Below the pieces are notes generated by a model that was given only the letters and a program-made list of their open reading frames with translations, searched no databases and was not told the DNA's origin. This document shows, piece after piece, positions 3,613 to 55,986 of a DNA stretch of 64,000 nucleotides. Source of the DNA: a virus; IMG/VR virus record IMGVR_UViG_3300045988_155139. One strand, given 5' to 3'. The position numbers were made by a program, and so were the translations under genes. Position 1 is the first letter of the stretch, and every line of letters begins with the position of its first letter.

Positions 3613-3993
3613 ATGAGACTTTGGCACCAAGATTTAATTCCAAAATTACCAAGACAACAATTACTTGGTCAATGGCGAGAATGTATAGCATTACTAGGAA
3701 ATGGTTGGGGAAGAAAACACAGAATAGTTGATTATGTTTTCACACATCCAGAAAGTTACTTGGTTGGATATACATATAAAGTTTATTCGGAAATGACTAA
3801 AAGGGGTTACCATCCAGATTTACAAAAAATTGGTTCAGCACTAAGAAAAAGAAATTTAACATATAAAGAAATTGACGATTACTTCACACAAATGTATCAA
3901 TTCACTGGAACAATCTATCCTGAGCATAATACTACATACTATAGAGAATGTATCGATAACCTAAGAACCAAAAATATTGAACTGGAGGGATAG
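3613..3993 (+). CDS. hypothetical protein
   Basis: 126 aa; RBS GGAGGT upstream. Confidence 0.55.
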   Translation: MRLWHQDLIPKLPRQQLLGQWRECIALLGNGWGRKHRIVDYVFTHPESYLVGYTYKVYSEMTKRGYHPDLQKIGSALRKRNLTYKEIDDYFTQMYQFTGTIYPEHNTTYYRECIDNLRTKNIELEG

Positions 3994-7081: not shown

Positions 7082-8974
7082 ATGTCAATATTGATTTACG
7101 ATTTTGAGGTTTTCAAATTCGACTGGATGGTAACTTTTAGAGAAGGAGACAACTATTATAGATTTCACAATGATGTACATGGGTTTAGAGATTTTTATGA
7201 GAGACATAAAGAAGACCTTTGGGTAGGACACAACAATACTCATTATGATAGTATTATGGCTAAATGTATAATCAATGGAGTAACAGGTATTGATTTGAAA
7301 AAAGCTTCTGACCAAATTGTTCAAGATGAAAAAGGCAGTGCGGTTATGAGACAATACAAACTTTATAATACCATCATCAATGACTTAGACCTTATGCAAG
7401 ACCAGATGTTCTTATCATTAAAAGAAATTGAAGGATTTTTGGGATTAGAAATTCATGAGTCTGAAGTTGACTTCACAATACAAAGACCATTGACTGAGGA
7501 AGAAGTTGCATTAGTTTTTAAATATAACAAGGATGACGTAGATGCAACATATGAAGAATTTAAAATCAAATTACAACAGGTAATGAGTAAAGTCAATTTG
7601 GTTAGAATGTATCATTTACCAAAACATTATGTTTCTAAAACAAATGGACAACTAAGTGGAGAAATTTTACAAGCTGAGTTCAAAGACTTTAAAGATGGAA
7701 CAACACCTTTTGACCCAAGTATAATACCCTTGACTATTGAGAAATATACAGAAGCAGTTGACTTCTTTAGTAAATGTGAAAAAATACCTTATTCCGAGTC
7801 TAAACCTATCATGGTTGCTGGTGTTGAGCACAAACTAGGAATAGGCGGTTTACATGGAGCATTACAAAATTTCATGTATTCTGGAGAGATGTGGTTAGTA
7901 GATGTTTCATCATATTACCCAAACCTAATGCTAAAAATGGGATTTGTCTCAAGAGGAATTAAAGAACCAGAGAGATTTCACCAACTGGTCCAAAGAAGAT
8001 TAGATAACAAACACAGAACCGCTGAGTTAAAAAAATTACTAGAAAAAGACCCAGATAATAAACAATATAAACAAGAATTAAAAGTTTGTAAAGGAGAGAC
8101 TGGAGCTTTAAAGTTAACAATAAATTCTATATCGGGATGTATGAAATCAAAATTTAGTAAGCTATTTGATGAGAAAAACAATAACAATATGTGTGTTTCA
8201 GGCCAATTATTACTGATTAACTTAATTGAAAAGTTAGAACCATATTGTAAATTAGTTCAAAGTAATACTGACGGTATCATAATCATTCCATATGATAAAG
8301 AAAAATGTGATGAGGCTATACAAGAATGGATGGATAGAACTGGATTAGAACTAGAAAAAACTGTAGCTTATAAGATATTCCAAAAAGATGTAAACAATTA
8401 CATATTATTGGAGGAAGGAGGTTCAGTCCATACTAAGGGTAGAGATGTAGCACAATACTCATCTAGAAAAGTTCAACACTTAATGAGAAATCACTTGAGA
8501 ATATTAGATAAAATGATAGTCGAATTCTTATTGTATAACAAACCCTTAGAAATACCTTTAGACACTCCTTTACGTGATTTACAAAATATCAAGAAGGTTG
8601 GAAGCACATATGAAGCTGTTTATTGGGAGAAACCAGAAGGACTAGTTAAATGTGCTAATACAGTCAACAGAATATTTCCAACTAAAGATACGTCATATGG
8701 AAAAGTCAAAAAGAAACACAGATTAAAAGAAAACTTAGATAATTTACCAGATATACCTGACCACTGCATGATTATCAATGACAACATCCAAGATAAAACT
8801 TTGGCAGATGTTATGGATTGGATTGATTTAGATTGGTATGTGGATGCAGCTAAAAAAGCTATTATAGCTTATGTATTAGACCCAAAAGAAAAAACTAAGG
8901 GTAGAAAGAAAGACCCGGAAGTAGACTGGCAAACAACTCTTGCCAAAATTAAAAAGTATGGAGGAGAAGAATAA
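7082..8974 (+). CDS. DNA polymerase, family B-like, with N-terminal 3'-5' exonuclease
   Basis: Exo I YDFEV, Exo II HNNTHYDSIM, Exo III YNKDDVDAT; pol motif A DVSSYYPN, motif B KLTINSISG, motif C-like SNTDGI. Confidence 0.65.
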   Translation: MSILIYDFEVFKFDWMVTFREGDNYYRFHNDVHGFRDFYERHKEDLWVGHNNTHYDSIMAKCIINGVTGIDLKKASDQIVQDEKGSAVMRQYKLYNTIINDLDLMQDQMFLSLKEIEGFLGLEIHESEVDFTIQRPLTEEEVALVFKYNKDDVDATYEEFKIKLQQVMSKVNLVRMYHLPKHYVSKTNGQLSGEILQAEFKDFKDGTTPFDPSIIPLTIEKYTEAVDFFSKCEKIPYSESKPIMVAGVEHKLGIGGLHGALQNFMYSGEMWLVDVSSYYPNLMLKMGFVSRGIKEPERFHQLVQRRLDNKHRTAELKKLLEKDPDNKQYKQELKVCKGETGALKLTINSISGCMKSKFSKLFDEKNNNNMCVSGQLLLINLIEKLEPYCKLVQSNTDGIIIIPYDKEKCDEAIQEWMDRTGLELEKTVAYKIFQKDVNNYILLEEGGSVHTKGRDVAQYSSRKVQHLMRNHLRILDKMIVEFLLYNKPLEIPLDTPLRDLQNIKKVGSTYEAVYWEKPEGLVKCANTVNRIFPTKDTSYGKVKKKHRLKENLDNLPDIPDHCMIINDNIQDKTLADVMDWIDLDWYVDAAKKAIIAYVLDPKEKTKGRKKDPEVDWQTTLAKIKKYGGEE

Positions 8975-9186
8975 TGTTATCAGTTCTAACTTTTATAATT
9001 GGATTTTTATTAGGTATGACTTGTGAAGCAAAATGGAAAGGTTATATACAAGAAAAAGTCTGGAAAGAGATGAATGAATTAGCTGAAAATATGAACAAAT
9101 TAGGTAAGTCCATGATAACATCTCAAATGATAATAACAAAAAGTTTGGAGGAAAAGAAAAATGAGAATAATAATCGAAGGAGTTGA
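8974..9186 (+). CDS. small membrane protein
   Basis: 70 aa with N-terminal hydrophobic helix. Confidence 0.45.
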   Translation: MLSVLTFIIGFLLGMTCEAKWKGYIQEKVWKEMNELAENMNKLGKSMITSQMIITKSLEEKKNENNNRRS

Positions 9187-9703
9187 CAAATCTGGAAAAT
9201 CTACAATCATTGAAAATATGAAAAATAGATTTGAATATGGAATAGCTATTAAAAATATGATAAAACCAAGAGATAATTCACCCGAAGAGACTAAAAGAAT
9301 TTGTGAAATCTATGAAGATATTGAGATAATGTCACAAAATATAGACCCCAATCACGTTTTCATATTGGATAGGTATTACCAGTCAGAAATTGTTTATTCT
9401 ATTTTACGTGGAAATGACCGATTAGTTGACCCTAACTTTAAAAATTGGGTAAGAGATATGGAAAGTGCAATAAGACATAACACACTGTTGGTTTTACTTG
9501 AAACTGATGCAGAAATTGTTGCTGATAGATTTAAAAAATGCAATGAAGATTTTGTCAAAGAGGACCAAATTAAAATGTTACAAGAAAGATATAATAAAGT
9601 CTTTGAGATGAGCACATTGCCAAAAATAAAACTTGATACTACCAAATTAGGTATTGAGAAATCATTAGAACTTATAGAAAAAGAAGTTCAAAAATTAAGA
9701 TAG
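9161..9703 (+). CDS. dNMP kinase (thymidylate kinase family)
   Basis: P-loop IEGVDKSGKSTI typical of Tmk-like kinases; 180 aa. Confidence 0.6.
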   Translation: MRIIIEGVDKSGKSTIIENMKNRFEYGIAIKNMIKPRDNSPEETKRICEIYEDIEIMSQNIDPNHVFILDRYYQSEIVYSILRGNDRLVDPNFKNWVRDMESAIRHNTLLVLLETDAEIVADRFKKCNEDFVKEDQIKMLQERYNKVFEMSTLPKIKLDTTKLGIEKSLELIEKEVQKLR

Positions 9704-9772
9704 GAGGAGATTATTACGAATATTTTAGACTATGAAGCAGATGAATTTAACAAAGAAACATGGCTTAGTGAC

Positions 9773-10354
9773 ATGTATGAGAGACAATATAAGGTTTATG
9801 AGAAATATAAAGAGATTGAAGGTATGCCAAAAGAATTTAAAAGCATACAAACTAGAGAAACTCAAAAATGGATGAAAGACTTTATAAACAGAATAAACGA
9901 AGAAGTAGCAGAAAGTTATGAAAGTATCAGAAACCCTGAGACTTCAGTTATCATTAAAGATGAACAAGGAAATGAATTCGATGTTCATAGGTCAGAAGAA
10001 TTGGCTGACGCATTACATTTCTATTTGGAATTACTTATAATCACTGGACATGACGCTGAATGGTTAAAAGAAAAATATTCTCATTATGAGAAAAAAGTAT
10101 ATAGTGATTTCATAGAATTAAATTATTGGGAAGTTAGCTATCAACTTGGAATGTTAGGTAATTGCTTAAAACTAAAACCTTGGAAACAAGATGAAGTTTT
10201 AACTGACCTAAACAAAGTAGATGACCAATTAACAAATGTCTTCTATTCATTATTAAATTGCTTTGCAGCTAATGGAAATACTGAGGAAGACATATATAGC
10301 TTATATACTCGTAAGAATAAAGTAAATAGGTTTAGACAAAATTCTGGTTATTAG
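9773..10354 (+). CDS. MazG-like nucleoside triphosphate pyrophosphohydrolase
   Basis: EEVAESYE ... EELADALHFYLEL acidic helix pair characteristic of all-alpha NTP-PPase (MazG/dCTPase) fold. Confidence 0.5.
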   Translation: MYERQYKVYEKYKEIEGMPKEFKSIQTRETQKWMKDFINRINEEVAESYESIRNPETSVIIKDEQGNEFDVHRSEELADALHFYLELLIITGHDAEWLKEKYSHYEKKVYSDFIELNYWEVSYQLGMLGNCLKLKPWKQDEVLTDLNKVDDQLTNVFYSLLNCFAANGNTEEDIYSLYTRKNKVNRFRQNSGY

Positions 10355-10366
10355 GAGGTAAAGATT

Positions 10367-10555
10367 ATGAAAATTAGAACATTCTGGGCACTTTATAATG
10401 CTGTTTTAGACGAGGAAGTTAACCAATTCTTAAGTAAAATAAAACCAGAGAATGTCTTAGATTTAAAATATTCTACTTCTTCTGATAATACTAGAAACAC
10501 AACGGTTTTCTCAGTAGCAATACTTTATGAGGAGGAAAAAGATGGCGAGATTTAA
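10367..10555 (+). CDS. hypothetical protein
   Basis: 62 aa ORF with RBS. Confidence 0.45.
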   Translation: MKIRTFWALYNAVLDEEVNQFLSKIKPENVLDLKYSTSSDNTRNTTVFSVAILYEEEKDGEI

Positions 10556-10802
10556 TGTTATAATTACCATTCTGATTACAATTTTAGAATTCACTATCGC
10601 TATATTCGACATATTGAGAGGAAAAATCTTTTGGGCTATAATCTTTGCAATAATTGGAATACTATATATAATCTATATGGTACCTTTAAGTTGGAGAAAC
10701 TATAAAAGAGATGTGAGATTGAAGAAAGAATGGAAAGAAATTCAAGAAAGAATAGATAAAGAATGGGGGAAATTTCAAGATGAGGATATATCAAAATTGT
10801 AA
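10542..10802 (+). CDS. small membrane protein (2 TM)
   Basis: ATG 10542 after GAGGAGG RBS; two hydrophobic helices. Confidence 0.5.
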   Translation: MARFNVIITILITILEFTIAIFDILRGKIFWAIIFAIIGILYIIYMVPLSWRNYKRDVRLKKEWKEIQERIDKEWGKFQDEDISKL

Positions 10803-11469
10803 AGAAATGATGTCAGAGGTTCATAGAGACCTACAAGAAATGGGTATAATCAAACATACAAAAACTGTTCAAGATAAAAACATCGAAGGTTTAGATGATT
10901 ATACCACAAAAGAATTAGTTGGTTATAGTTATTCAATATTAGATTTTAGTGATAAAGACCAAATGATTTTGGACAATGGTCTATCACTTGACTGGTGTCG
11001 TGCTGAGTTTGCAGAAAGGATTTGTCCAGATGAAGTAAATCCTGGTGAGGCTTATAAACTAAGACCAGTTTGGGACGAATTTGTACATGATGGAAAATTT
11101 AGTTACACATACAATGAAAGAATTAGAACACAATTAGAAAAAACAATGGATGTTTTAAAGAATGACCCTAACTCACGTCAGGCTATCATAGAGATATATA
11201 ATTCTACATTAGATAGCGACAATAGAGGTGGAGTAAAGAGAATTCCTTGCTCAATGTATTACCAATTTATTACAGACCAAAATGGAAAGTTAGACATCAT
11301 CTATAACATCAGAAGTAATGACTTTGGAGAACATTACCCATATGACATATGGATGGCTATCACATTATTACAATATGTAGCTGAGAATTTGGAGATGAAA
11401 GTTGGAAAACTAATCTACTTCTGTGGAAGTTTACATTGTTTTAAAAAGGACCTTCCAACAACATTCTAA
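10780..11469 (+). CDS. thymidylate synthase (ThyA) family enzyme, possible dNMP hydroxymethylase
   Basis: RIPCSMYYQF (catalytic Cys context) and NIRSNDFGEHYPYDIWMAITLL matching the ThyA Q-R-S-x-D...P-F-N-I...LL block; short (229 aa), like phage hydroxymethylases. Confidence 0.55.
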   Translation: MRIYQNCKEMMSEVHRDLQEMGIIKHTKTVQDKNIEGLDDYTTKELVGYSYSILDFSDKDQMILDNGLSLDWCRAEFAERICPDEVNPGEAYKLRPVWDEFVHDGKFSYTYNERIRTQLEKTMDVLKNDPNSRQAIIEIYNSTLDSDNRGGVKRIPCSMYYQFITDQNGKLDIIYNIRSNDFGEHYPYDIWMAITLLQYVAENLEMKVGKLIYFCGSLHCFKKDLPTTF

Positions 11470-11753
11470 TGGAGATTGTAAATAAAGAAAAGGGAGTAGT
11501 ATTTTCTGAAAAAGAAAAATCCAAAAATAACAATGATCTGATTTCACAATATGACAAAAGAATAAATGACATATTGCACAAAATCGAATTCCAAGATTTT
11601 ACTCCAGCTCAGGCATACAAAACTTTAATGAAGTTACAAGGATTTTTAAGAAAGAGAGGAAGTCTCAAAAGAAGAGGAAAAATATATACTCCCAGGACAG
11701 AAACTGGAAATTATATTATAGATGGTAAAGTAACTGACCAAAAACTAAGATAG
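11469..11753 (+). CDS. hypothetical basic protein
   Basis: 94 aa, ATG overlapping previous stop. Confidence 0.45.
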   Translation: MEIVNKEKGVVFSEKEKSKNNNDLISQYDKRINDILHKIEFQDFTPAQAYKTLMKLQGFLRKRGSLKRRGKIYTPRTETGNYIIDGKVTDQKLR

Positions 11754-11974: not shown

Positions 11975-12118
11975 ATGAAAGAAAGTTATATTTATTGCAC
12001 AAGATACCAAGAATGGTATAACTCCTTAGATAAGTTAGCTAAAGAGCAAAAATTAGAATGCAACAGGGATTGTAAGAATTGTAAATATCACAAAACAGTT
12101 TGGGTGGAGGAAGATTAA
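11975..12118 (+). CDS. small Cys-containing protein
   Basis: 47 aa ORF not in track; ATG 11975 after AAAGGAGAATG RBS; CNRDCKNC motif. Confidence 0.4.
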   Translation: MKESYIYCTRYQEWYNSLDKLAKEQKLECNRDCKNCKYHKTVWVEED

Positions 12119-12406
12119 ATGGATAACAAAGAAAAACCAAAATACATAAGAGACGATGTCAAATGTAAAGATTGTTTATATTATGAAAGTTCTATCTGGA
12201 AACCTTGGTGGGGTGAAAGATATTGTCACCATCCAGAAATTATCAGAACAGGACTGACAGATGTTACTCCCGGATGTGAACAATGGGAGATTAACACACA
12301 AGAAAAAGAAATGGACTTTATAGTTTATTTTAAAGAATGTATCGAGAAGCGGTTATTTGGTAATGGAAAAACGAATAACTTTACAATATATGGAAGAAGC
12401 AATTAA
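12119..12406 (+). CDS. Cys-rich protein (putative metal-binding)
   Basis: CKDC...CHHPE...C pattern; 95 aa. Confidence 0.5.
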   Translation: MDNKEKPKYIRDDVKCKDCLYYESSIWKPWWGERYCHHPEIIRTGLTDVTPGCEQWEINTQEKEMDFIVYFKECIEKRLFGNGKTNNFTIYGRSN

Positions 12407-12595: not shown

Positions 12596-13444
12596 ATGGG
12601 TCCAAAATATGACAACTTGGAAAGGCCAAAGGACATTGAGAAATTACCAAAAAATTATGTTTTTGAAAATTATAGGGATTGCTTATATGGACTAAGTGAT
12701 GTAGTCATATCACTAAAGAAAGATAAGTTTAGACAATATGGAGTAACAGTGCTAATTAAAAAAGATGACCTGGATGGAATTGACCAACTATATTTTAGAA
12801 GACCAAAGAAAAGACAGTTACTTAGAAAAAGATATGTTGATGAAGAAGAATGGAAAAAATCATTAGAAGAAGCACTAAAGACAGACAGAGTATACTATAG
12901 TTTTAAAGAACAAACTAGAGCACATGGTAATCACTCAGCAGGGAAGTGTTTATTAGATTTTGAAATTACCAAACCTATACAAGAAAGACAAAACCATCGA
13001 CAACTTATAGTAAATATGAGAGCTTCTATAGTTCCATATAACCTATTCTTTGATTTACTTTTATTACACCAAATGCTTAGCGAAGTAACCGACAAATGGG
13101 GAATAAAAGTAGAGGGAGGTATCGTTTTAAATATTGAGCTGTTGACTATCAAGAAAGGGGCAAGCTTTGGAGCTTTAATTTGTATGGGGTATCACTTTAA
13201 AGACTTAAAACAATCTAAGTTTTTCACTGGTGATATTAACCATATGTTTGACAATCAGAATTACCCTTGTACATTTAAAGTTGCGAGAGTTGCTTGGAAT
13301 AATGCTTATAATGAAATGAAAGATAGACTGGCAGCCGGTGAAGACCCATCTCTTTGGGAATGGACACCAACCAGAGAAATCAGACACAGGTCCAAAAAGT
13401 ATCAAGAACAAAAATTAGAGGAGGAATTAAAAGATGGAAAATAA
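12596..13444 (+). CDS. hypothetical protein (282 aa)
   Basis: RBS AAAGGAGATGAG; no motif recognised; sits between the nucleotide-metabolism genes and the primase. Confidence 0.55.
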   Translation: MGPKYDNLERPKDIEKLPKNYVFENYRDCLYGLSDVVISLKKDKFRQYGVTVLIKKDDLDGIDQLYFRRPKKRQLLRKRYVDEEEWKKSLEEALKTDRVYYSFKEQTRAHGNHSAGKCLLDFEITKPIQERQNHRQLIVNMRASIVPYNLFFDLLLLHQMLSEVTDKWGIKVEGGIVLNIELLTIKKGASFGALICMGYHFKDLKQSKFFTGDINHMFDNQNYPCTFKVARVAWNNAYNEMKDRLAAGEDPSLWEWTPTREIRHRSKKYQEQKLEEELKDGK

Positions 13445-13842: not shown

Positions 13843-16089
13843 ATGGAAAAATCCGAGACAAGTAAAAATCAATATTGGTATTCTCCTTTGCCAAAGACTG
13901 GTAGTGTTGACCGTGAGGGTAAGTCAATCGAGAAACAACCTAACTTCAACAAAAAATTTACATACGAAGAAATAAAAGCTCTAGGTTGCAATTATGTTAG
14001 AAGAGTAAATCCAGGATTTGTATTTTTTGATTTTGATAAACCCGAGTTGGCCGCTATCATGGATAAAATCGTCAAAGACCAAGGACTAAAGTGTAAGAGA
14101 CTAACAACTACTCGTGGAGCGCATTTTATGTTTAAGACTGAGCGTGGAAAAATCAGTGATGGTAGTGGACCTAATTGGTTGGGTATAGATTGTGATTTAA
14201 AGGGAGTAGGAGTTGACCAACCAAGGAAGATAAATTGTCAGGTTATAAGATTACATGATGAGGATAGACCCGAAGAATATATTGGTTTTGATAAGAAAAG
14301 AGCTGAAGATGGAAGTTTGGATGTAACCGATGATGATTTAGACTATGCACCATTTTATTTATACCATGCACCAAAGTCAGCCAGAGAAACTTTGTCACAG
14401 GCATTGGGAATGGCCTCAGGTGATGGCTCGGGGAGAAATAACTGGTTCCATCATGAATATGCAAAGTTTTGTAAAAAAGCTAAATTTACCTGGGAGCAAT
14501 ATCACCAAGCAAGTGGACTAATTAACCGATTTGTATTTGGTGAGTCTTTAAGTGATGATGAGTTAACAACAGCAACGAGACAGGAAGAATATGACGATTT
14601 AAAAGTAGGAAGTAAAGAAGAAAAGCCTTTAATATTAGTGCAAGCAGAAGACTTGATAGAAACCTGGAACTGCAAGATGTGCAACAGTGAGATTTTGTTC
14701 TTCAACGAAGATTTAGGACATTATGATAGTTATATAGAAGTTCTGAGAAGATATTTGCAAAGAAAATACTCAGAAAATAACATAACAACCCAGAAGATAG
14801 ACGAAATCATGAAACAGGTGGTGATAATTTTGAACACAGAAAGGGAGTATCAAGTAAAAAGGTCTGAGGAATATGTAGTATGTAAGGACCGTTTAGTCTC
14901 AACCCTCAGAGATGAGACTCGAGAAATGACCAGAAGTATTGTAACCGACATAGTTTACCCATTTAGTTTTATGACACCAAGTGAGATAGCCGATTATGAA
15001 AAGAGAGGCCAAGAGTTAATAAATAAAGCCAAATTAGATAAAATGAATGGTAAGTGGGTCGAAGAAAAAGCACCAAAGAGAGATGCCGAAGGAAAAGTTA
15101 TTGGACCTGAAGGAACCACATATAAATTTATTAAAGAAATAAGTTGTTTTGACCCTAAAGTTGAAACAGTAATCTTAGAAGCCCTAGGATGTATGTTAGC
15201 ACCAGTTAAAAAATTACCAAAAATATTTATATTTTATGGCTCTGGAGCTAATGGTAAGTCAAAACTTTTGGATTTAATGAGAGAAATTATGGGGCCTTTA
15301 ATGACATCAGCTAACATACTTAATATCAATGACAACTTTGCTTTACAAAATGTATATAAGGGAATAGCAAATGTAACCGACGACGTTGGTATCACAACAC
15401 TAAGAGAGACTGGTTTATTTAAAAGTTTAATAGATGGAACAGATATTGAGGTAAACATAAAACATAAAGACCCAATTTTATGGAAACCCAACTCACAATT
15501 TGTTATGTGCTGCAACGAAATACCAAGAATAGCTGATAGCACAAAGGGTATGATTAGAAGACTTAGCTTTGTTCCATTTGAAATGCAATTAACAAAAGCT
15601 GACATGGATGTATTTTTATTAGATAAGATGAGAAATGAGCCAGGACATAATGGTCTAAGATATTTAATGAGTAAAGCTATAATAGCTTATAGAGCAGCAA
15701 TAGCCAGAGGAGATTTAACCGAATTAGACAAACAGAAAGAATTAGAAGAAGACTTCCTTGAGGAGAATAAAGACAGAATATCACAATTTCTAGAATATAT
15801 GATAGAAGAAAATGGCGGTGACTTAGATATGGGAATTTGTGATAAAAACCTAGGATGGCTCAACCAAGTATTTGCTCAAGAGCTATACACTGATTATGTA
15901 CAATGGTGCCAAAGAAATTTCGATTCCAAAATAGAAACACAAAAAGCTTTTAGCACAAGATTTAAAAAGAAGCTTCCATCTAACTGGACACTCATCCAAA
16001 AGAAGTTTGAGGGAAGGAATTTGAGAATTTATGTAAACAAACTACAATATGGAGATTTCAAATTACCTGGCAAAACTACTCAGATTTAA
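13843..16089 (+). CDS. primase-polymerase / P4-D5 family SF3 helicase
   Basis: 748 aa; C-terminal Walker A FIFYGSGANGKSKL and D5-type helicase region; N-terminal prim-pol-like region. Confidence 0.7.
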   Translation: MEKSETSKNQYWYSPLPKTGSVDREGKSIEKQPNFNKKFTYEEIKALGCNYVRRVNPGFVFFDFDKPELAAIMDKIVKDQGLKCKRLTTTRGAHFMFKTERGKISDGSGPNWLGIDCDLKGVGVDQPRKINCQVIRLHDEDRPEEYIGFDKKRAEDGSLDVTDDDLDYAPFYLYHAPKSARETLSQALGMASGDGSGRNNWFHHEYAKFCKKAKFTWEQYHQASGLINRFVFGESLSDDELTTATRQEEYDDLKVGSKEEKPLILVQAEDLIETWNCKMCNSEILFFNEDLGHYDSYIEVLRRYLQRKYSENNITTQKIDEIMKQVVIILNTEREYQVKRSEEYVVCKDRLVSTLRDETREMTRSIVTDIVYPFSFMTPSEIADYEKRGQELINKAKLDKMNGKWVEEKAPKRDAEGKVIGPEGTTYKFIKEISCFDPKVETVILEALGCMLAPVKKLPKIFIFYGSGANGKSKLLDLMREIMGPLMTSANILNINDNFALQNVYKGIANVTDDVGITTLRETGLFKSLIDGTDIEVNIKHKDPILWKPNSQFVMCCNEIPRIADSTKGMIRRLSFVPFEMQLTKADMDVFLLDKMRNEPGHNGLRYLMSKAIIAYRAAIARGDLTELDKQKELEEDFLEENKDRISQFLEYMIEENGGDLDMGICDKNLGWLNQVFAQELYTDYVQWCQRNFDSKIETQKAFSTRFKKKLPSNWTLIQKKFEGRNLRIYVNKLQYGDFKLPGKTTQI

Positions 16090-24079: not shown

Positions 24080-25051
24080 ATGGTACATATTCTAACACAT
24101 AACGACTTAGATGGCTATGCTGCTGGTTATATCGTATCAAAATATTTTCATCATAAAAGAAAAAGTATAACATTTCTCAACTATGATAAAGAACCCGTTA
24201 TTGAAAATTATCAAGAAGGAGACATTGTTGTTATTACTGATTATTCATTGAGTAATGACCAATATGAACAAATTCTTGAGAGAATTGGAGATGACGGGCA
24301 TTTAATTTGGTGCGACCATCATAAAACTGCCATCGACAGATACAATCAAAGTGATGTATGCTGTGAAGGAATTCGTAGTACAAAATATTGTGGAGCAGTA
24401 TTAGCTTATTTATATTTTGAGACAGCAGTCGATACTGAAGAAGTAGAGGAGTGGACCTATGAGAAAATCATGGAAGAAATTCCAGAATGGTTGAGATATG
24501 TTGACGCTTGGGACACTTGGAAATTAGACAGTGAATATAGAAAAGGGGCAGAAAGACTAAATCTTGCTGTGTCCAACATCTTGAGTGAAACTCTTATGGC
24601 TGATATTTCCAAAGATGTTCACAACTATATCAAAATTGGTAGATATTATGAAGCATACAGAAATCAGTGGGCAAAGACATTCCGAGATAATTACATGTTC
24701 CATAAAACTCTAAGTGGTAAATTATTTGGAACTGATAGAGATGTCAAAGCTTGTATCTTGACTCTCGGAAATGCTAATAGCGAATTCTTTGGAGATGAGA
24801 TAGATAAATCTGATGTTTGTATCACTCAATGTTTTAATGGTGAGAAATGGAAAGTTAGTGTATATTCTAATAAGCCAGATATTGACTGTGGTCTATATTG
24901 CCAAACATTTGGGGGTGGAGGACATAAAGGAGCAGCCGGATGTTATTTCGAACAAATCAATCCACCAGGTTTTATATGTGAAGACATTGAGATTTTAAGG
25001 AAAGAATTATATAATATGAATGTGACTAAAAATAATGAAAGTCACAAATAA
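24080..25051 (+). CDS. DHH/DHHA1-family phosphoesterase (NrnA/RecJ-like)
   Basis: NDLDG (motif I), ITDYS (motif II), CDHHKT (DHH motif III), GGGGHKGAAG (DHHA1 GGGH); 323 aa. Confidence 0.65.
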   Translation: MVHILTHNDLDGYAAGYIVSKYFHHKRKSITFLNYDKEPVIENYQEGDIVVITDYSLSNDQYEQILERIGDDGHLIWCDHHKTAIDRYNQSDVCCEGIRSTKYCGAVLAYLYFETAVDTEEVEEWTYEKIMEEIPEWLRYVDAWDTWKLDSEYRKGAERLNLAVSNILSETLMADISKDVHNYIKIGRYYEAYRNQWAKTFRDNYMFHKTLSGKLFGTDRDVKACILTLGNANSEFFGDEIDKSDVCITQCFNGEKWKVSVYSNKPDIDCGLYCQTFGGGGHKGAAGCYFEQINPPGFICEDIEILRKELYNMNVTKNNESHK

Positions 25052-52829: not shown

Positions 52830-54113
52830 ATGAAAACAATACCTTATGATTATCAAGAAAAAATTGCTAATGATATTTTAGAGAGTGGTGATTATGCCAA
52901 AGCTCTGTTCATGGATATGGGTACAGGTAAAACCATCACTAGTTTATTGGTTTTTGAAAAATTGTGGGAACAAAATAAAGTAGACAGAATTTTAGTTGTT
53001 TGTCTTAAAAACAAAATTGGGGATTGGAAAGAAGCTATAGAAGATGAATTTGCATACCCTCCAACATATGAAGTTATAAACTTTGAAAGTATTTGGAGAA
53101 CTAAACGTGCTGAGTATTATAAGAATTTTATAACACCAAGAACAATGATTATCATTGATGAGAGTCACAAAATGAAATCTCACAAAACTAAAATTACCAA
53201 ATATCTATTATCTATTTATGATAGAACCAAATATAAACTTATTCTGACAGGAACTCCTCAGAGTGAAGAATATATTGACTATTATCCACAAATGAAATTT
53301 ATAAATGCTAGAGATTATGATATACCTTATAGAAAATTTGAAGACACATATGTCATAAAAACTTTAGATACTTCTGGAGCACATTTTTATTGGACTATTC
53401 AGGGTTACAAATATCCAAGAATATTACAAAAAGGAATAGTTGAAAAATCATACTATCACAAATATACTTCACAATATGACAAACCTGTTGAGATTTTCCA
53501 AGATATTGAGCATTCTAAAGAAGCTATTAAGTTCCAAAAAGACAGAGTATGGGTAGACCCAGATAAAGAAAGAGGAGAAGATGTCATTGCCGATACTCAA
53601 TTTGCACTTAGGATTTACTTAAGACAAAGTTGTTCCGGATTTATTAAAGATTATGACATAAGCTCACCTAAAGAAGAATGGCTCAAAGATTTTTTGGAAA
53701 TTACTCCATATAGGGTAGTTATATTCGTAAACTTCATAAGAGAAATAGAAAAGATTAAAGAATTATGTCAAAAATTAAAAAGACCAGTTGGAGTTTACTA
53801 TGGAGCAGTAAAAGATTTAGCTCCATTTAAAGAAAATGAGAATGGAATAGCTATAGTTAACTATCAGTCAGGTGCGGTTGGAATAAATGACCTTTGTATT
53901 GCCAATATTGGAGTTTTCTATAGTCCACCAGATGGTAACTATATTTTGTATGCTCAGGCTAAAGCTAGATTAGATAGAATTGGCCAAAAGAAACAACCTG
54001 TATTTTATTTTCTACAGACCAAAGGTAGTCTGGAAAGAGCTATTTATGATAATCTTAGAAAAGGTCAAGATTTCGATGATAAAATGTTTGAGGCTTGGTT
54101 AAAAAAGCATTAA
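52830..54113 (+). CDS. SF2 (SNF2/DEAD-like) helicase
   Basis: motif I FMDMGTGKTITSL, motif II IIDESHKMKS; 427 aa. Confidence 0.6.
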   Translation: MKTIPYDYQEKIANDILESGDYAKALFMDMGTGKTITSLLVFEKLWEQNKVDRILVVCLKNKIGDWKEAIEDEFAYPPTYEVINFESIWRTKRAEYYKNFITPRTMIIIDESHKMKSHKTKITKYLLSIYDRTKYKLILTGTPQSEEYIDYYPQMKFINARDYDIPYRKFEDTYVIKTLDTSGAHFYWTIQGYKYPRILQKGIVEKSYYHKYTSQYDKPVEIFQDIEHSKEAIKFQKDRVWVDPDKERGEDVIADTQFALRIYLRQSCSGFIKDYDISSPKEEWLKDFLEITPYRVVIFVNFIREIEKIKELCQKLKRPVGVYYGAVKDLAPFKENENGIAIVNYQSGAVGINDLCIANIGVFYSPPDGNYILYAQAKARLDRIGQKKQPVFYFLQTKGSLERAIYDNLRKGQDFDDKMFEAWLKKH

Positions 54114-54705: not shown

Positions 54706-55986
54706 ATGGAAATATTAGAAGTTACAAATAGAACAGAAAAGCAGGCCTTAGATACACTTCTTCAAATTGAGCATACTTCTGGAACTAATGCTAAGATTGA
54801 CCTGTTAAAATCACAAAAAGACAATACTTCACTTAAGCACATTTTGGAATTCACTCTAAATCCCTACATTAGGACCGGAATAGGTGAAACCAAATTGGAG
54901 AAATTGGAACTAGGTGAAATCTCAAAAGAACAAGAATGGAGTTTACCGGGTCTGTTTGATTATTTACAAGACAATAATACAGGGAGAGACGAAGATGTAG
55001 CTAAAGTTAAAAAATTCATAACACAACAAGACCCTGAGTATCAGGAAATATTGTCAAAAATCTTTACAAAAACCTTAAATATTGGTATATCGGAAAAAAC
55101 CGTAAACAAAGTATGGTCAGATTTAATTCCTTCTTTTGGAATTCAACTTGCCCATAGGTTTGAAGATTATCTGGATAAATTAGAGAACAAAGAGGTTTTT
55201 ATAACTGAGAAATTAGATGGAAATCGTTGTTTTGCAAAAGTTGAAAATCATATATGTACATTTTACACTAGGAGTGGAAGAGTGATAGAAGGTCTGGATG
55301 ATATAGGCAACGAACTATCTAGATTGACAGAAGGTTGGTACGATGGTGAACTTATATCAAAATCATTCAATGCTACACAAAGTCAAACTCTCAGAAAGGG
55401 TAAAAAGAAAAATCTAGTTTTTAACATTTTTGATTTTCTACTTTTGGGAGAGGTTAGAGACCAACACTGTATTCACGGATATGGAGAAAGAAGAATATTT
55501 TTAGAAAAGATATTCTATGGTATTGAAAAATTTCAATTCGTAAAATTGGTTCCTCTTATTGCAAGAGGTAAATTCGAACAAGATTGGATAATGCATATTC
55601 TAGATGATTACACATCTCAAGGTTCAGAAGGAATAATGTTAAATCTTAACCAACCATATGAGTTCAAGAGAAGTGAAAATCTCATAAAAGTTAAAAAGAT
55701 GTATACACTGGATTTAAAGGTTTTACATGTACAAGAAGGTTCTGGTCAAAATAGAGGTAAACTTGGAAATATTATAGTAGATTATAAGGGTTATGCAGTA
55801 GGAGTAGGCTCTGGTTTTAGTAAAGAACAAAGAGAATATTATTGGCAACACCCTGAAGACATAATTGGAAAAATTGTTGAGATAAAGGCCTTTGAAGAAA
55901 CAACCAATAAAAATGGAACAAAATCTCTTCGTTTTCCAGTATTTCAGAAAATTAGAAAAGATAAAGATATAGAAAGTTATGATTAG
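54706..55986 (+). CDS. ATP-dependent DNA ligase
   Basis: motif I KLDGNR, motif IV EGIMLN, motif V LIKVKK; 426 aa. Confidence 0.7.
   Translation: MEILEVTNRTEKQALDTLLQIEHTSGTNAKIDLLKSQKDNTSLKHILEFTLNPYIRTGIGETKLEKLELGEISKEQEWSLPGLFDYLQDNNTGRDEDVAKVKKFITQQDPEYQEILSKIFTKTLNIGISEKTVNKVWSDLIPSFGIQLAHRFEDYLDKLENKEVFITEKLDGNRCFAKVENHICTFYTRSGRVIEGLDDIGNELSRLTEGWYDGELISKSFNATQSQTLRKGKKKNLVFNIFDFLLLGEVRDQHCIHGYGERRIFLEKIFYGIEKFQFVKLVPLIARGKFEQDWIMHILDDYTSQGSEGIMLNLNQPYEFKRSENLIKVKKMYTLDLKVLHVQEGSGQNRGKLGNIIVDYKGYAVGVGSGFSKEQREYYWQHPEDIIGKIVEIKAFEETTNKNGTKSLRFPVFQKIRKDKDIESYD

Follow-up and report, generated by a model that had tools for sequence, protein, structure and literature searches.

The window analysed here, a stretch of 64,000 nucleotides from the IMG/VR virus record IMGVR_UViG_3300045988_155139, belongs to a human-gut siphophage of about 66 kb with a low-GC, AT-rich genome (67% A+T) and a Gram-positive host. 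It carries a module comprising a kinase, an NTP pyrophosphohydrolase (NTPase) and a short homolog of thymidylate synthase (ThyA), with a polymerase gene immediately upstream, together with a 282-aa protein (p282) and a deaminase (Table 1). The ORFs assigned by an earlier sequence-only reading to the kinase, the NTPase, the ThyA homolog, p282 and the deaminase are exact and all lie on the plus strand, and its family assignments are upheld by matches to Pfam and PHROG profiles. It had, however, described four consecutive genes, which does not hold for the deaminase: this ORF is present but lies 47 kb away from the other module genes.

Table 1. Genes of the module and associated genes in the window
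Feature	Position	Strand	Basis
Family-B-type DNA polymerase, 630 aa	7082..8974	+	phrog_1252, motifs A/B/C
Tmk-like dNMP kinase, 180 aa	9161..9703	+	PF02223, phrog_761, P-loop
gp56-like all-alpha NTP pyrophosphohydrolase, 193 aa	9773..10354	+	PF08761
Short Asp-type ThyA homolog, 229 aa	10780..11469	+	PF00303
p282, cryptic second ThyA-fold protein, 282 aa	12596..13444	+	Fold and residue register
dCMP-deaminase-family enzyme, 156 aa	58711..59181	+	PF00383, phrog_174

A megablast search with 7 kb against 50,697 phage records gave zero matches, and relatives are found at the protein level only. Genes for DHFR, ThyX or a canonical ThyA were not found in the window. Furthermore, in the 50 ORFs of the window and in the 20 neighbour clusters that recur most often across 80 related loci, 51 of which have full flanks, neither a glycosyl- or carbamoyl-transferase nor DHFR, ThyX, a 5-HMU DNA kinase or any other gene of hypermodification was found. 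The lack, in the window and recurrent neighbours, of a glycosyl- or carbamoyl-transferase that would mark a 5hmC intermediate counts against a 5-hydroxymethylated product.

The 229-aa protein matches PF00303 (5e-17, 62.3 bits for a cut-off of 24.3), has the ThyA fold and possesses the equivalents of Cys146, Arg166-Ser167, Tyr94 and His207; its relatives are publicly annotated as 'thymidylate synthase'. The region corresponding to ThyA Asn177 reads IRSNDFGEHYPYDI, which the sequence-only reading had mistaken for a 'QRS.D...PFNI-like block', and the residue aligned with Asn177 is an Asp (D189). The window enzyme and 203/203 relatives alike have Asp at this base-selecting position, as does T4 gp42, while alignment places an Asn there in E. 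coli ThyA and SPO1 gp29, the matching columns being FGANLCQ in gp29 and YPYDIWM in the window enzyme. To our knowledge, selectivity for dUMP always requires Asn177. In established mutagenesis work, cited in PMC8670742 and PMC13326640, the N177D substitution turns ThyA to dCMP, and D179N turns the T4 dCH enzyme to dUMP.

Other positions help to delineate the type of enzyme. Position 169 is occupied by D181, and Asp169 is retained in 203/203 relatives, so that the window enzyme is not of the flavin-dependent 5-hydroxy-dCMP synthase (5hodCMP) type, of which D169N is diagnostic (PMC13326640) and in which 9iqu reads RSQN; the RSND motif of the window enzyme is the same as in gp42. Asp177 with a retained Asp169 is the combination of T4-type 5hm-dCMP synthases, yet these enzymes follow the rule of an acidic residue (Asp or Glu) at Leu143 (PMC13326640), and this position is an Arg, hydrophilic but not acidic, in 203/203 relatives. 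Such an Arg is without match among the characterised enzymes (Asp in T4, Glu in RB69 and DLP3, Asn in XP12). Leu143 was discarded as the lone discriminator between methylation and hydroxymethylation, the XP12 methylase having an Asn there. At the His147 position, the short family has Ser or Thr, and the window enzyme Ser. The tail following His207 comprises about 10-11 residues in the window family, whereas ThyA has 57 residues there and the XP12 methylase 63. It is established that ThyA truncated at its C-terminus no longer transfers hydride or forms dTMP (cf. the title of PDB entry 1tda).

With Asp at position 177, Ser in place of His147 and no C-terminal lid (in canonical enzymes, some 57 residues beyond His207), the protein is no genuine thymidylate synthase, in agreement with the sequence-only reading. 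It does not have the Asn177 of an SPO1-type dUMP hydroxymethylase such as gp29 either. The full-length architecture with a tail and the DHFR linkage of the Xp12 type are likewise absent, these two features being correlates drawn from one characterised clade and not proven requirements. Overall similarity cannot assign the product, since the short family is equidistant (48-57 bits each) from E. coli ThyA, SPO1 gp29, the XP12 methylase and T4 gp42, and assignment by the nearest characterised relative was consequently rejected. Altogether, the 229-aa protein is a putative dCMP C5-modifying enzyme and most probably a 5-hydroxymethyl-dCMP synthase.

As the sequence-only reading had suspected, the 282-aa protein is part of the module. 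p282 is a second ThyA-fold enzyme, unrecognised before, that accompanies the pathway in numerous phages. Its residues Cys118, Arg142 and Asp153 are the equivalents of ThyA Cys146, Arg166 and Asn177 and, across 129 representatives, show a conservation of 90% or more; an Asn (PYN) considered as the base-selecting residue was dismissed, the conserved and correctly spaced residue being Asp153. None of the 129 members matches PF00303 (0/129) or any other family in a Pfam scan, and the p282 profile retrieves only chance eL22 matches among PDB sequences. Comparison with the short ThyA family by hhalign is weak (17%, and 2% with a larger alignment), while a broad alignment of the ThyA superfamily gives 83% (E 8.7e-6) with C118/R142/D153 in register; as only this broader alignment gave such a value, homology is argued mainly from structure and from the consistent catalytic register. 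Structurally, p282 is closest to the flavin-dependent AfhB, the entries 9IQU, 9IQC and 9IR2 having been identified from Foldseek descriptions. Since it has no conserved Arg126/Arg127 pair, and since position 169, a Glu in most members, is an Ile in the clade of the window, p282 may fall outside the conventional folate enzymes and is possibly not catalytic at all. The gene is sometimes duplicated in tandem and is absent from 21 of the 51 loci with full flanks, from which it follows that the ThyA homolog does not depend on it.

The NTPase matches PF08761 (dUTPase_2; 2e-10, 41.6 bits for a cut-off of 22.9) and is a true homolog of T4 gp56 (BLASTP E 8e-9), with which it shares the C-terminal ...RQxxGY; the family profile aligns with gp56 at 94% by hhalign (E 1e-7), and no similarity to SPO1 gp22.1 was detected. 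It is present in 76 of the 80 related loci and in all 51 with full flanks. In 12 loci, a canonical trimeric dUTPase is encoded upstream of it, which argues that the NTPase is more than a mere dUTPase. On the basis of its homology, we regard it as a putative dCTPase that would remove dCTP and supply dCMP.

The kinase contains the P-loop IEGVDKSGKST noted by the sequence-only reading, matches PF02223 (Thymidylate_kin, 4e-9) and phrog_761 (7e-24), and has SPbeta YorR as its best PDB match. In 27/80 related loci a homolog precedes the NTPase, and CPD4_72 is a further case. Its putative substrate would be a modified dCMP, phosphorylated to the diphosphate. The deaminase (PF00383, 5e-14; phrog_174, 2e-32) retains the zinc motifs HSE and PCSLC, and its PDB matches comprise S. 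mutans ComEB, T4 Cd and the cyanophage and human dCMP deaminases. Homologs lie at most 10 kb from the ThyA homolog in 31/80 loci, and the tie of this enzyme to the pathway comes from published co-occurrence statistics rather than from adjacency in the window. It could either supply dUMP for dTMP synthesis by the host or deaminate modified dC nucleotides. The polymerase had been correctly recognised as a family-B enzyme: it matches phrog_1252 (7e-123), gives zero Pfam or PDB sequence matches, and motifs A, B and C are legible in its translation (DVSSYYPN, KLTINSISG and SNTDGI). It would incorporate the modified dNTP.

The cassette also occurs in phages with PolA and in Clostridium perfringens phage CPD4, which, like Clo-PEP-1 and CP3, encodes the kinase, the NTPase, p282 and the ThyA homolog. 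An apparently perfect mutual exclusion between p282 and the kinase proved to be an artefact of single-linkage clustering, HMM detection giving seven loci with both; the remaining negative association follows the PolA versus PolB lineages. The 'two thymidylate synthases' of the KlebPhaCol preprint are an ordinary T4-like td and gp42. Papers on C. perfringens phages deal with therapy and endolysins, and DNA-modification data were not found in them.

Taken together, these data make it somewhat probable that the module achieves a T4-style, pre-replicative replacement of cytosine. This reading builds on the observed gene content, family and fold memberships, diagnostic residues, homology to gp56 and conserved linkage, from which we infer all substrates and products and the role of p282. 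The gp56-like NTPase would hydrolyse dCTP, and probably also dUTP, to the monophosphate, thereby keeping ordinary cytosine out of phage DNA and feeding dCMP to the ThyA homolog. Cys157 of the latter would add to C6 of dCMP, with the one-carbon unit coming from methylene-tetrahydrofolate; because there is no C-terminal lid and an Arg replaces Leu at the water-excluding position, water is proposed to capture the exocyclic methylene, yielding 5-hydroxymethyl-dCMP. The Tmk-like kinase would then form the diphosphate and the host NDK the triphosphate for incorporation by the phage polymerase, while the dCMP deaminase would divert part of the (modified) dC pool to the T pool. As p282 keeps the nucleophile, the phosphate-binding Arg and the cytosine-selecting Asp, it most likely catalyses, or helps with, one more reaction of a cytosine nucleotide. 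The sequence-only reading thus stands in proposing a non-canonical nucleotide pathway leading to modified DNA rather than ordinary thymidylate supply, but the presence of Asp instead of Asn at position 177 reverses its interpretation, and cytosine rather than thymine is indicated as the replaced base.

Metavirome screens, as far as their available text goes, link the same gene combination to cytosine modification (PMC8670742; bioRxiv 10.1101/2024.12.05.627091). In the accessible parts of PMC8670742, MetaGPA singles out ThyA positions 177 and 147 as the most discriminating for cytosine-modified contigs and reports co-occurrence with PRA-PH/MazG and dCMP deaminase. The window resembles these contigs by its Asp177/non-His147 signature and, at the Pfam level, by the association of an Asp177 ThyA with PRA-PH/MazG and dCMP deaminase, often beside DNA_pol_A in the contigs. 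It differs from the characterised cases, which in the same portions of these studies are carbamoyltransferase-linked (5hmC) or Xp12-like (5mC), and neither the short, tail-less Arg143 clade nor the Pfam-invisible p282 is described in the text of the MetaGPA studies available to us.

The T4 hmC pathway (gp56, gp42, the dNMP kinase gp1 and Cd) is similar in its logic and its four activities; the deaminase is homologous to T4 Cd, and gp42 has, like the window enzyme, Thr/Ser at the His147 position and a shortened C-terminus. In contrast, identity with gp42 is only about 24%, the window family being no closer to it than to ThyA, Arg replaces the Asp of T4 at position 143, and the tail is of 10 instead of 30 aa. 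Moreover, the window kinase is Tmk-like and not gp1-like, glucosyltransferases are lacking in the window, an additional ThyA-fold protein is present, and the phage is a siphovirus of a Gram-positive host. SPO1 also has a pre-replicative pathway with a ThyA-fold hydroxymethylase, gp29, which has a hydrophilic residue near Leu143 and a His at Gly173 as in the window enzyme; gp29 differs by a C-terminal extension of 159 residues. Both ThyA-fold proteins of the window find their best matches, by sequence and by structure, in AfhB and RB69 gp48 (PDB 9iqc, 9iqu), which share the minimal length (about 234 aa) and Asp177, whereas D169N is absent from the window enzyme, p282 has Glu or Ile there, and the window is devoid of arabinose or glycosyl genes. 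Finally, the Xp12 dCMP methyltransferase has Asp177 and a genomic dCMP deaminase, but is an enzyme of 288-289 aa with a 63-residue tail and an adjacent DHFR, both missing in the window enzyme.

It is this last system that inspires one competing scenario, possible but doubtful, in which the ThyA homolog makes 5-methyl-dCMP, the deaminase converts 5-methyl-dC to dT nucleotides and the NTPase excludes dCTP. Asp177 fits it equally well, no transferase needing a hydroxyl handle is encoded in the window, and, as XP12 illustrates, a methylase can have a polar residue at position 143. Moreover, in the available parts of the metavirome work, five of seven tested deaminase-linked Asp177 homologs made 5mdCMP, and their deaminases preferred 5mdCTP; the confirmed methylases are, however, described there as Xp12/PaMx74-like, a full-length clade with 100% coverage of the XP12 protein, tail included. 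DHFR adjoins the XP12 enzyme and was found neither in the window nor in the genes that recur around the 80 loci. In addition, the tail of the window family is confined to about 10 residues, a truncation that established enzymology associates with the loss of hydride transfer. It is unlikely that the cytosine derivative is neither methylated nor hydroxymethylated at C5, and possibly the joint work of the short ThyA homolog and p282. The Cys of p282 might re-activate 5hm-dCMP to the exocyclic methylene for capture by a different nucleophile, or p282 might use a non-folate cofactor, as AfhB does with flavin. The invariant Arg at Leu143 together with His at Gly173 has no characterised precedent, p282 combines its proximity to AfhB and its Cys/Arg/Asp set with a non-standard position 169 in the clade of the window and is duplicated in some loci, and unexpected chemistry has lately been uncovered in ThyA homologs (PMC13326640). 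The proposal nevertheless stays wholly inferential, genes for cofactor supply or donor synthesis did not turn up in the vicinity, and p282 is missing from the 21 loci mentioned above.

The SPO1-type replacement of thymine by 5-hydroxymethyluracil put forward by the sequence-only reading is very unlikely, be it partial or complete. The ThyA homolog would have to take dUMP despite Asp177, conserved in all 203 relatives while the proven dUMP hydroxymethylase gp29 has Asn, or the deaminase would have to convert 5hm-dC to 5hm-dU with the NTPase removing dTTP and dUTP. This second route has in its favour the presence of a dCMP deaminase, a family whose phage members, according to the accessible parts of the literature, convert 5hmdCTP to 5hmdUTP, and a putative NTPase specificity within a Pfam family named for dUTPases. 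Against it, the NTPase is homologous to gp56 and not to gp22.1, the deaminase occurs in just 31/80 related loci and is distant in the window, and neither a 5-HMU DNA kinase nor any other gene for thymidine hypermodification came to light in the window or its recurrent neighbours. It is highly improbable that a divergent thymidylate synthase, a dUTPase, a thymidylate kinase and a dCMP deaminase merely boost dTTP for this AT-rich genome with no modification at all. All four families do serve canonical dTTP synthesis, and the public annotation of the relatives and the A+T content agree with such a role; yet Asp177, Ser/Thr at position 147 and the absent lid for hydride transfer speak against it, as do the canonical dUTPase beside the NTPase in 12 loci and the sorting of Asp177 homologs with cytosine-modified DNA in the available part of the metavirome screens (PMC8670742).

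Complete substitution of cytosine protects a phage from many restriction systems and some CRISPR effectors, and phages of this kind are a source of enzymes used in epigenetic sequencing. The p282 branch is invisible to Pfam, keeps its catalytic residues and is locked to the cassette in hundreds of phages; as flavin-dependent ThyA chemistry has just been demonstrated, this makes it a concrete candidate for a new reaction. We tentatively raise the prospect that p282 is a new catalytic branch which, with the short ThyA homolog, either as a heterodimer or by acting second, on a 5-substituted dCMP, yields a cytosine derivative undescribed in phage DNA and widespread among siphophages of the gut and the environment, cultured C. 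perfringens phages among them; the question is testable in the cultured phage CPD4. If T4-like cytosine replacement is confirmed, it would extend to abundant siphophages of the human gut and of C. perfringens that are under development for phage therapy, and such an unrecognised DNA modification would affect the sequencing, cloning, host range and resistance of these phages.

The ThyA homolog encoded in the window, a protein of 229 residues, carries an Asp (D189, in the motif YPYDIW) in the column of Asn177 of E. coli ThyA, both in an HMMER alignment to that enzyme and in a MAFFT alignment including T4 gp42 and SPO1 gp29 (E. coli numbering is used hereafter). It thereby resembles the dCMP hydroxymethylase of T4 (gp42, Asp179) and differs from the dUMP hydroxymethylase of SPO1 (gp29) and from ThyA, both of which have an Asn. 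Mutagenesis has established residue 177 as the determinant of specificity for uracil or cytosine (PMC13326640; PMC8670742). Among the 203 members of this short family, C146, R166, S167, Y94, D169 and Asp177 are strictly conserved, Leu143 is always replaced by an Arg, position 147 is a Ser or Thr rather than a His, and position 173 is a His in 200. The tail following the equivalent of His207 has a median of 11 residues (n = 203); E. coli ThyA, gp42 and the XP12 enzyme have 57, 30 and 63 residues there, respectively.

The sequence-only reading had proposed an SPO1-type replacement of thymine by 5-hydroxymethyluracil. As a kind of system, a base-replacement pathway is borne out, but it very probably modifies cytosine, at C5 and whatever the product, on account of Asp177, the gp56-like NTPase and the lack of similarity to gp22.1. 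Indeed, this all-alpha NTP pyrophosphohydrolase shows direct BLASTP similarity to the T4 dCTPase/dUTPase gp56 (E 8e-9), with which it shares a C-terminal RQxxGY motif, and a 30-sequence profile of its family matches gp56 with 94% probability, while no similarity to SPO1 gp22.1 was found. The five ORFs named in that reading were verified in position and on the + strand, and their family assignments stand.

Features of the window discussed in the text
Feature	Coordinates	Strand	Evidence
DenV-like pyrimidine-dimer glycosylase	3613-3993	+	PF03013 Pyr_excise 3.7e-21
DNA polymerase	7082-8974		phrog_1252 7e-123; family-B motifs readable in sequence
Tmk-like P-loop kinase	9161-9703	+	PF02223 4e-9; phrog_761 7e-24
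NTPase	9773-10354	+	PF08761 dUTPase_2 2e-10
Small ORF	10367-10555	+	
Small ORF	10527-10802	+	
ThyA homolog	10780-11469	+	PF00303 5e-17
Cys-rich ORFs (47 and 95 aa)	11975-12406	+	no family matches
p282	12596-13444	+	no match in Pfam or PHROG
D5/DUF5906 primase-helicase	13843-16089	+	
DHH/DHHA1 phosphoesterase-like	24080-25051	+	weak match (2e-5)
SNF2-type helicase	52830-54113	+	
ATP-dependent DNA ligase	54706-55986	+	
dCMP-deaminase-family protein	58711-59181	+	PF00383 5e-14; PDB matches ComEB, T4 Cd, human dCMP deaminase
SPFH/Band_7 plus flotillin-like protein (488 aa)	60116-61582	+	

The window is a near-complete genome of a low-GC siphophage (GC 32.7%) with Terminase_3, an SPP1-type portal and a GH25/CW_7/LysM endolysin, the last of which points to a Gram-positive host. 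An identical copy of the ThyA homolog is present on human-gut metagenome contigs, and no DNA-level relative was found among 50,697 phage records. This gut phage also encodes a T4 DenV-like glycosylase, its own ligase, helicase and primase-helicase, and a DHH-like protein among the head-morphogenesis genes. DNA ligase is one of the domain hubs tied to modified-cytosine contigs in MetaGPA (PMC8670742). The flotillin-like gene, whose product combines a hydrophobic segment at the N terminus with a long coiled region rich in Ala, Glu and Lys, is unusual for a phage.

For 80 viral loci that carry a relative of the ThyA homolog, ORFs were called and clustered; 51 of these loci have full flanks, i.e. 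5 kb or more on either side. The NTPase occurs in 76 of the 80 loci and in all 51 full-flank loci, the dCMP deaminase in 31 and the Tmk-like kinase in 27. A canonical trimeric dUTPase (PF00692) lies just upstream of the gp56-like NTPase in 12/80 loci, a co-occurrence that speaks against redundancy between them. A Cpn10/GroES-like gene (PF00166 8e-15) adjoins the ThyA homolog in 25/80 loci (e.g. L035:2154-2459), and the remaining recurrent neighbors are replication genes (UDG-PolA fusions, PolB, DnaB, gp32, primase, helicases, FEN and RecA). No glycosyl- or carbamoyl-transferase was found in the window or recurrently in the 80 loci. A PolA with an N-terminal UDG-superfamily domain is directly downstream of the cassette in 43 loci (e.g. 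L031:11259-13787; L084:10051-12504); it is found in 22 of 26 full-flank loci containing p282 (Fisher p 2e-5) and seems preferentially tied to that version of the module. The two small ORFs separating the NTPase from the ThyA homolog, a 62-aa Cse60-like protein (PF10957 2e-6) and a 91-aa predicted membrane protein overlapping the ThyA-homolog start, are not conserved (1/80 and 3/80 loci). The Cys-rich ORFs, suspected earlier of being modification enzymes, recur in only 1-2/80 loci and hence fall outside the conserved module.

The family of p282, a protein of 282 residues, emerged from reference-free clustering as the third most conserved neighbor of the ThyA homolog; by HMM it is present in 54/80 loci, mostly a few hundred bp away and on the same strand. 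Its alignment reveals near-invariant Tyr80, Cys118, Arg142 and Asp153 residues, with an Arg-to-Asp spacing of 11 residues identical to that of R166-N177 in ThyA. Furthermore, all top-50 Foldseek PDB matches of its AlphaFold model (pLDDT 78, pTM 0.78) belong to the ThyA superfamily, led by AfhB (E 1.9e-6), T4 dCH and MilA. A 129-sequence profile matches the ThyA-superfamily alignment (83% probability, E 8.7e-6), pairing C118/R142/D153 with C146/R166/N177 and placing a Glu at the D169 position; matches to the short ThyA family alone are weak (17% and 2%). That p282 has kept the nucleophile, the phosphate-binding Arg and the Asp that selects cytosine speaks for a putative catalytic role on a cytosine nucleotide, while the lack of a conserved R126/R127 pair, the variable D169 position and about 90 extra C-terminal residues suggest that p282 may not be a conventional folate enzyme. 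As 21 of the 51 full-flank loci are devoid of p282, the ThyA homolog can work alone. Exhaustive HMMER searching of 1.84 billion proteins retrieved 227 representative clusters of p282 relatives, and Pfam recognizes none of the 129 members scanned. A limited literature search found no description of the family, which does not by itself prove novelty.

Eight loci (L059, L063, L065, L068, L070, L073, L074 and L076, at about 7.3-10 kb in each) have two p282-family genes in tandem (about 329 and about 253 aa) immediately upstream of the ThyA homolog, which suggests paralog specialization or a hetero-oligomer. In distant PolA-type phages, the order is NTPase, p282 family, small ORF, ThyA homolog and PolA, with overlapping stops and starts. 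In the cultured Clostridium perfringens phage CPD4 (MK017819 46874-49645, L089:3991-6762), CPD4_72, CPD4_73 and CPD4_74 bear the label "hypothetical" but correspond to the kinase, the gp56-like NTPase and a p282-family protein, respectively. The ThyA homolog is CPD4_75, and its label "thymidylate synthase" is probably wrong, judging from its Asp at the N177 position.

Which product is formed is less clear-cut than which base is targeted, since E. coli ThyA, SPO1 gp29, the XP12 enzyme and T4 gp42 all obtain nearly the same score with the family HMM (48-57 bits) and similarity is thus unable to decide. According to PMC13326640, N177D points to a dCMP substrate, D169N points to a flavin-dependent 5-hydroxy-dCMP synthase, and residue 143 is bulky and hydrophobic in methylating enzymes but Asp or Glu in hydroxymethylating ones. 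The 5-hydroxy-dCMP synthase type was rejected because the family keeps Asp169, while its best sequence match, the HY126 dCMP hydroxylase AfhB (PDB 9iqu/9iqc), reads RSQN. The invariant Arg143 is hydrophilic and without precedent in any characterized enzyme; the rule is not absolute, since the XP12 methylase (MT664984) has an Asn there. The C-terminal lid is essentially missing from the window enzyme. Removal of the ThyA C terminus abolishes hydride transfer, and the characterized short-tailed enzymes, T4 dCH and AfhB, do not methylate; 5-hydroxymethyl-dCMP is therefore moderately favored as the enzyme's product, and 5-hydroxymethylcytosine has an even or slightly better than even chance of being the base in the DNA.

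5-Methylcytosine is the next candidate, though an unlikely one. In the preprint 10.1101/2024.12.05.627091, a ThyA homolog is encoded within 3 kb of 70% of the deaminases found on modified contigs, many of these deaminases prefer 5mdCTP or 5hmdCTP, and five of the seven linked ThyA homologs tested yielded 5-methyl-dCMP, these methylases being called Xp12/PaMx74-like. However, XP12 and its clade are full-length (100% coverage of a 288-aa protein), unlike the window family, and XP12 has DHFR and deaminase genes beside its enzyme, whereas neither the window nor the set of recurrent neighbors in the 80 loci includes a DHFR. Another cytosine adduct is somewhat less probable still. 5-Hydroxymethyldeoxyuridine, as first proposed, now appears improbable, and the absence of any modification slightly more so.

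MetaGPA (PMC8670742) reports that ThyA positions 177 and 147 best separate cytosine-modified from unmodified phage contigs and that Asp177 homologs are accompanied by PRA-PH/MazG NTPases and dCMP deaminases. Together with the later preprint, this makes the pathway type a known, cytosine-directed one, and the module belongs to an already described class. What sets it apart as a variant is a cryptic second partner with a ThyA fold and an uncharacterized, tail-less clade with Arg143.
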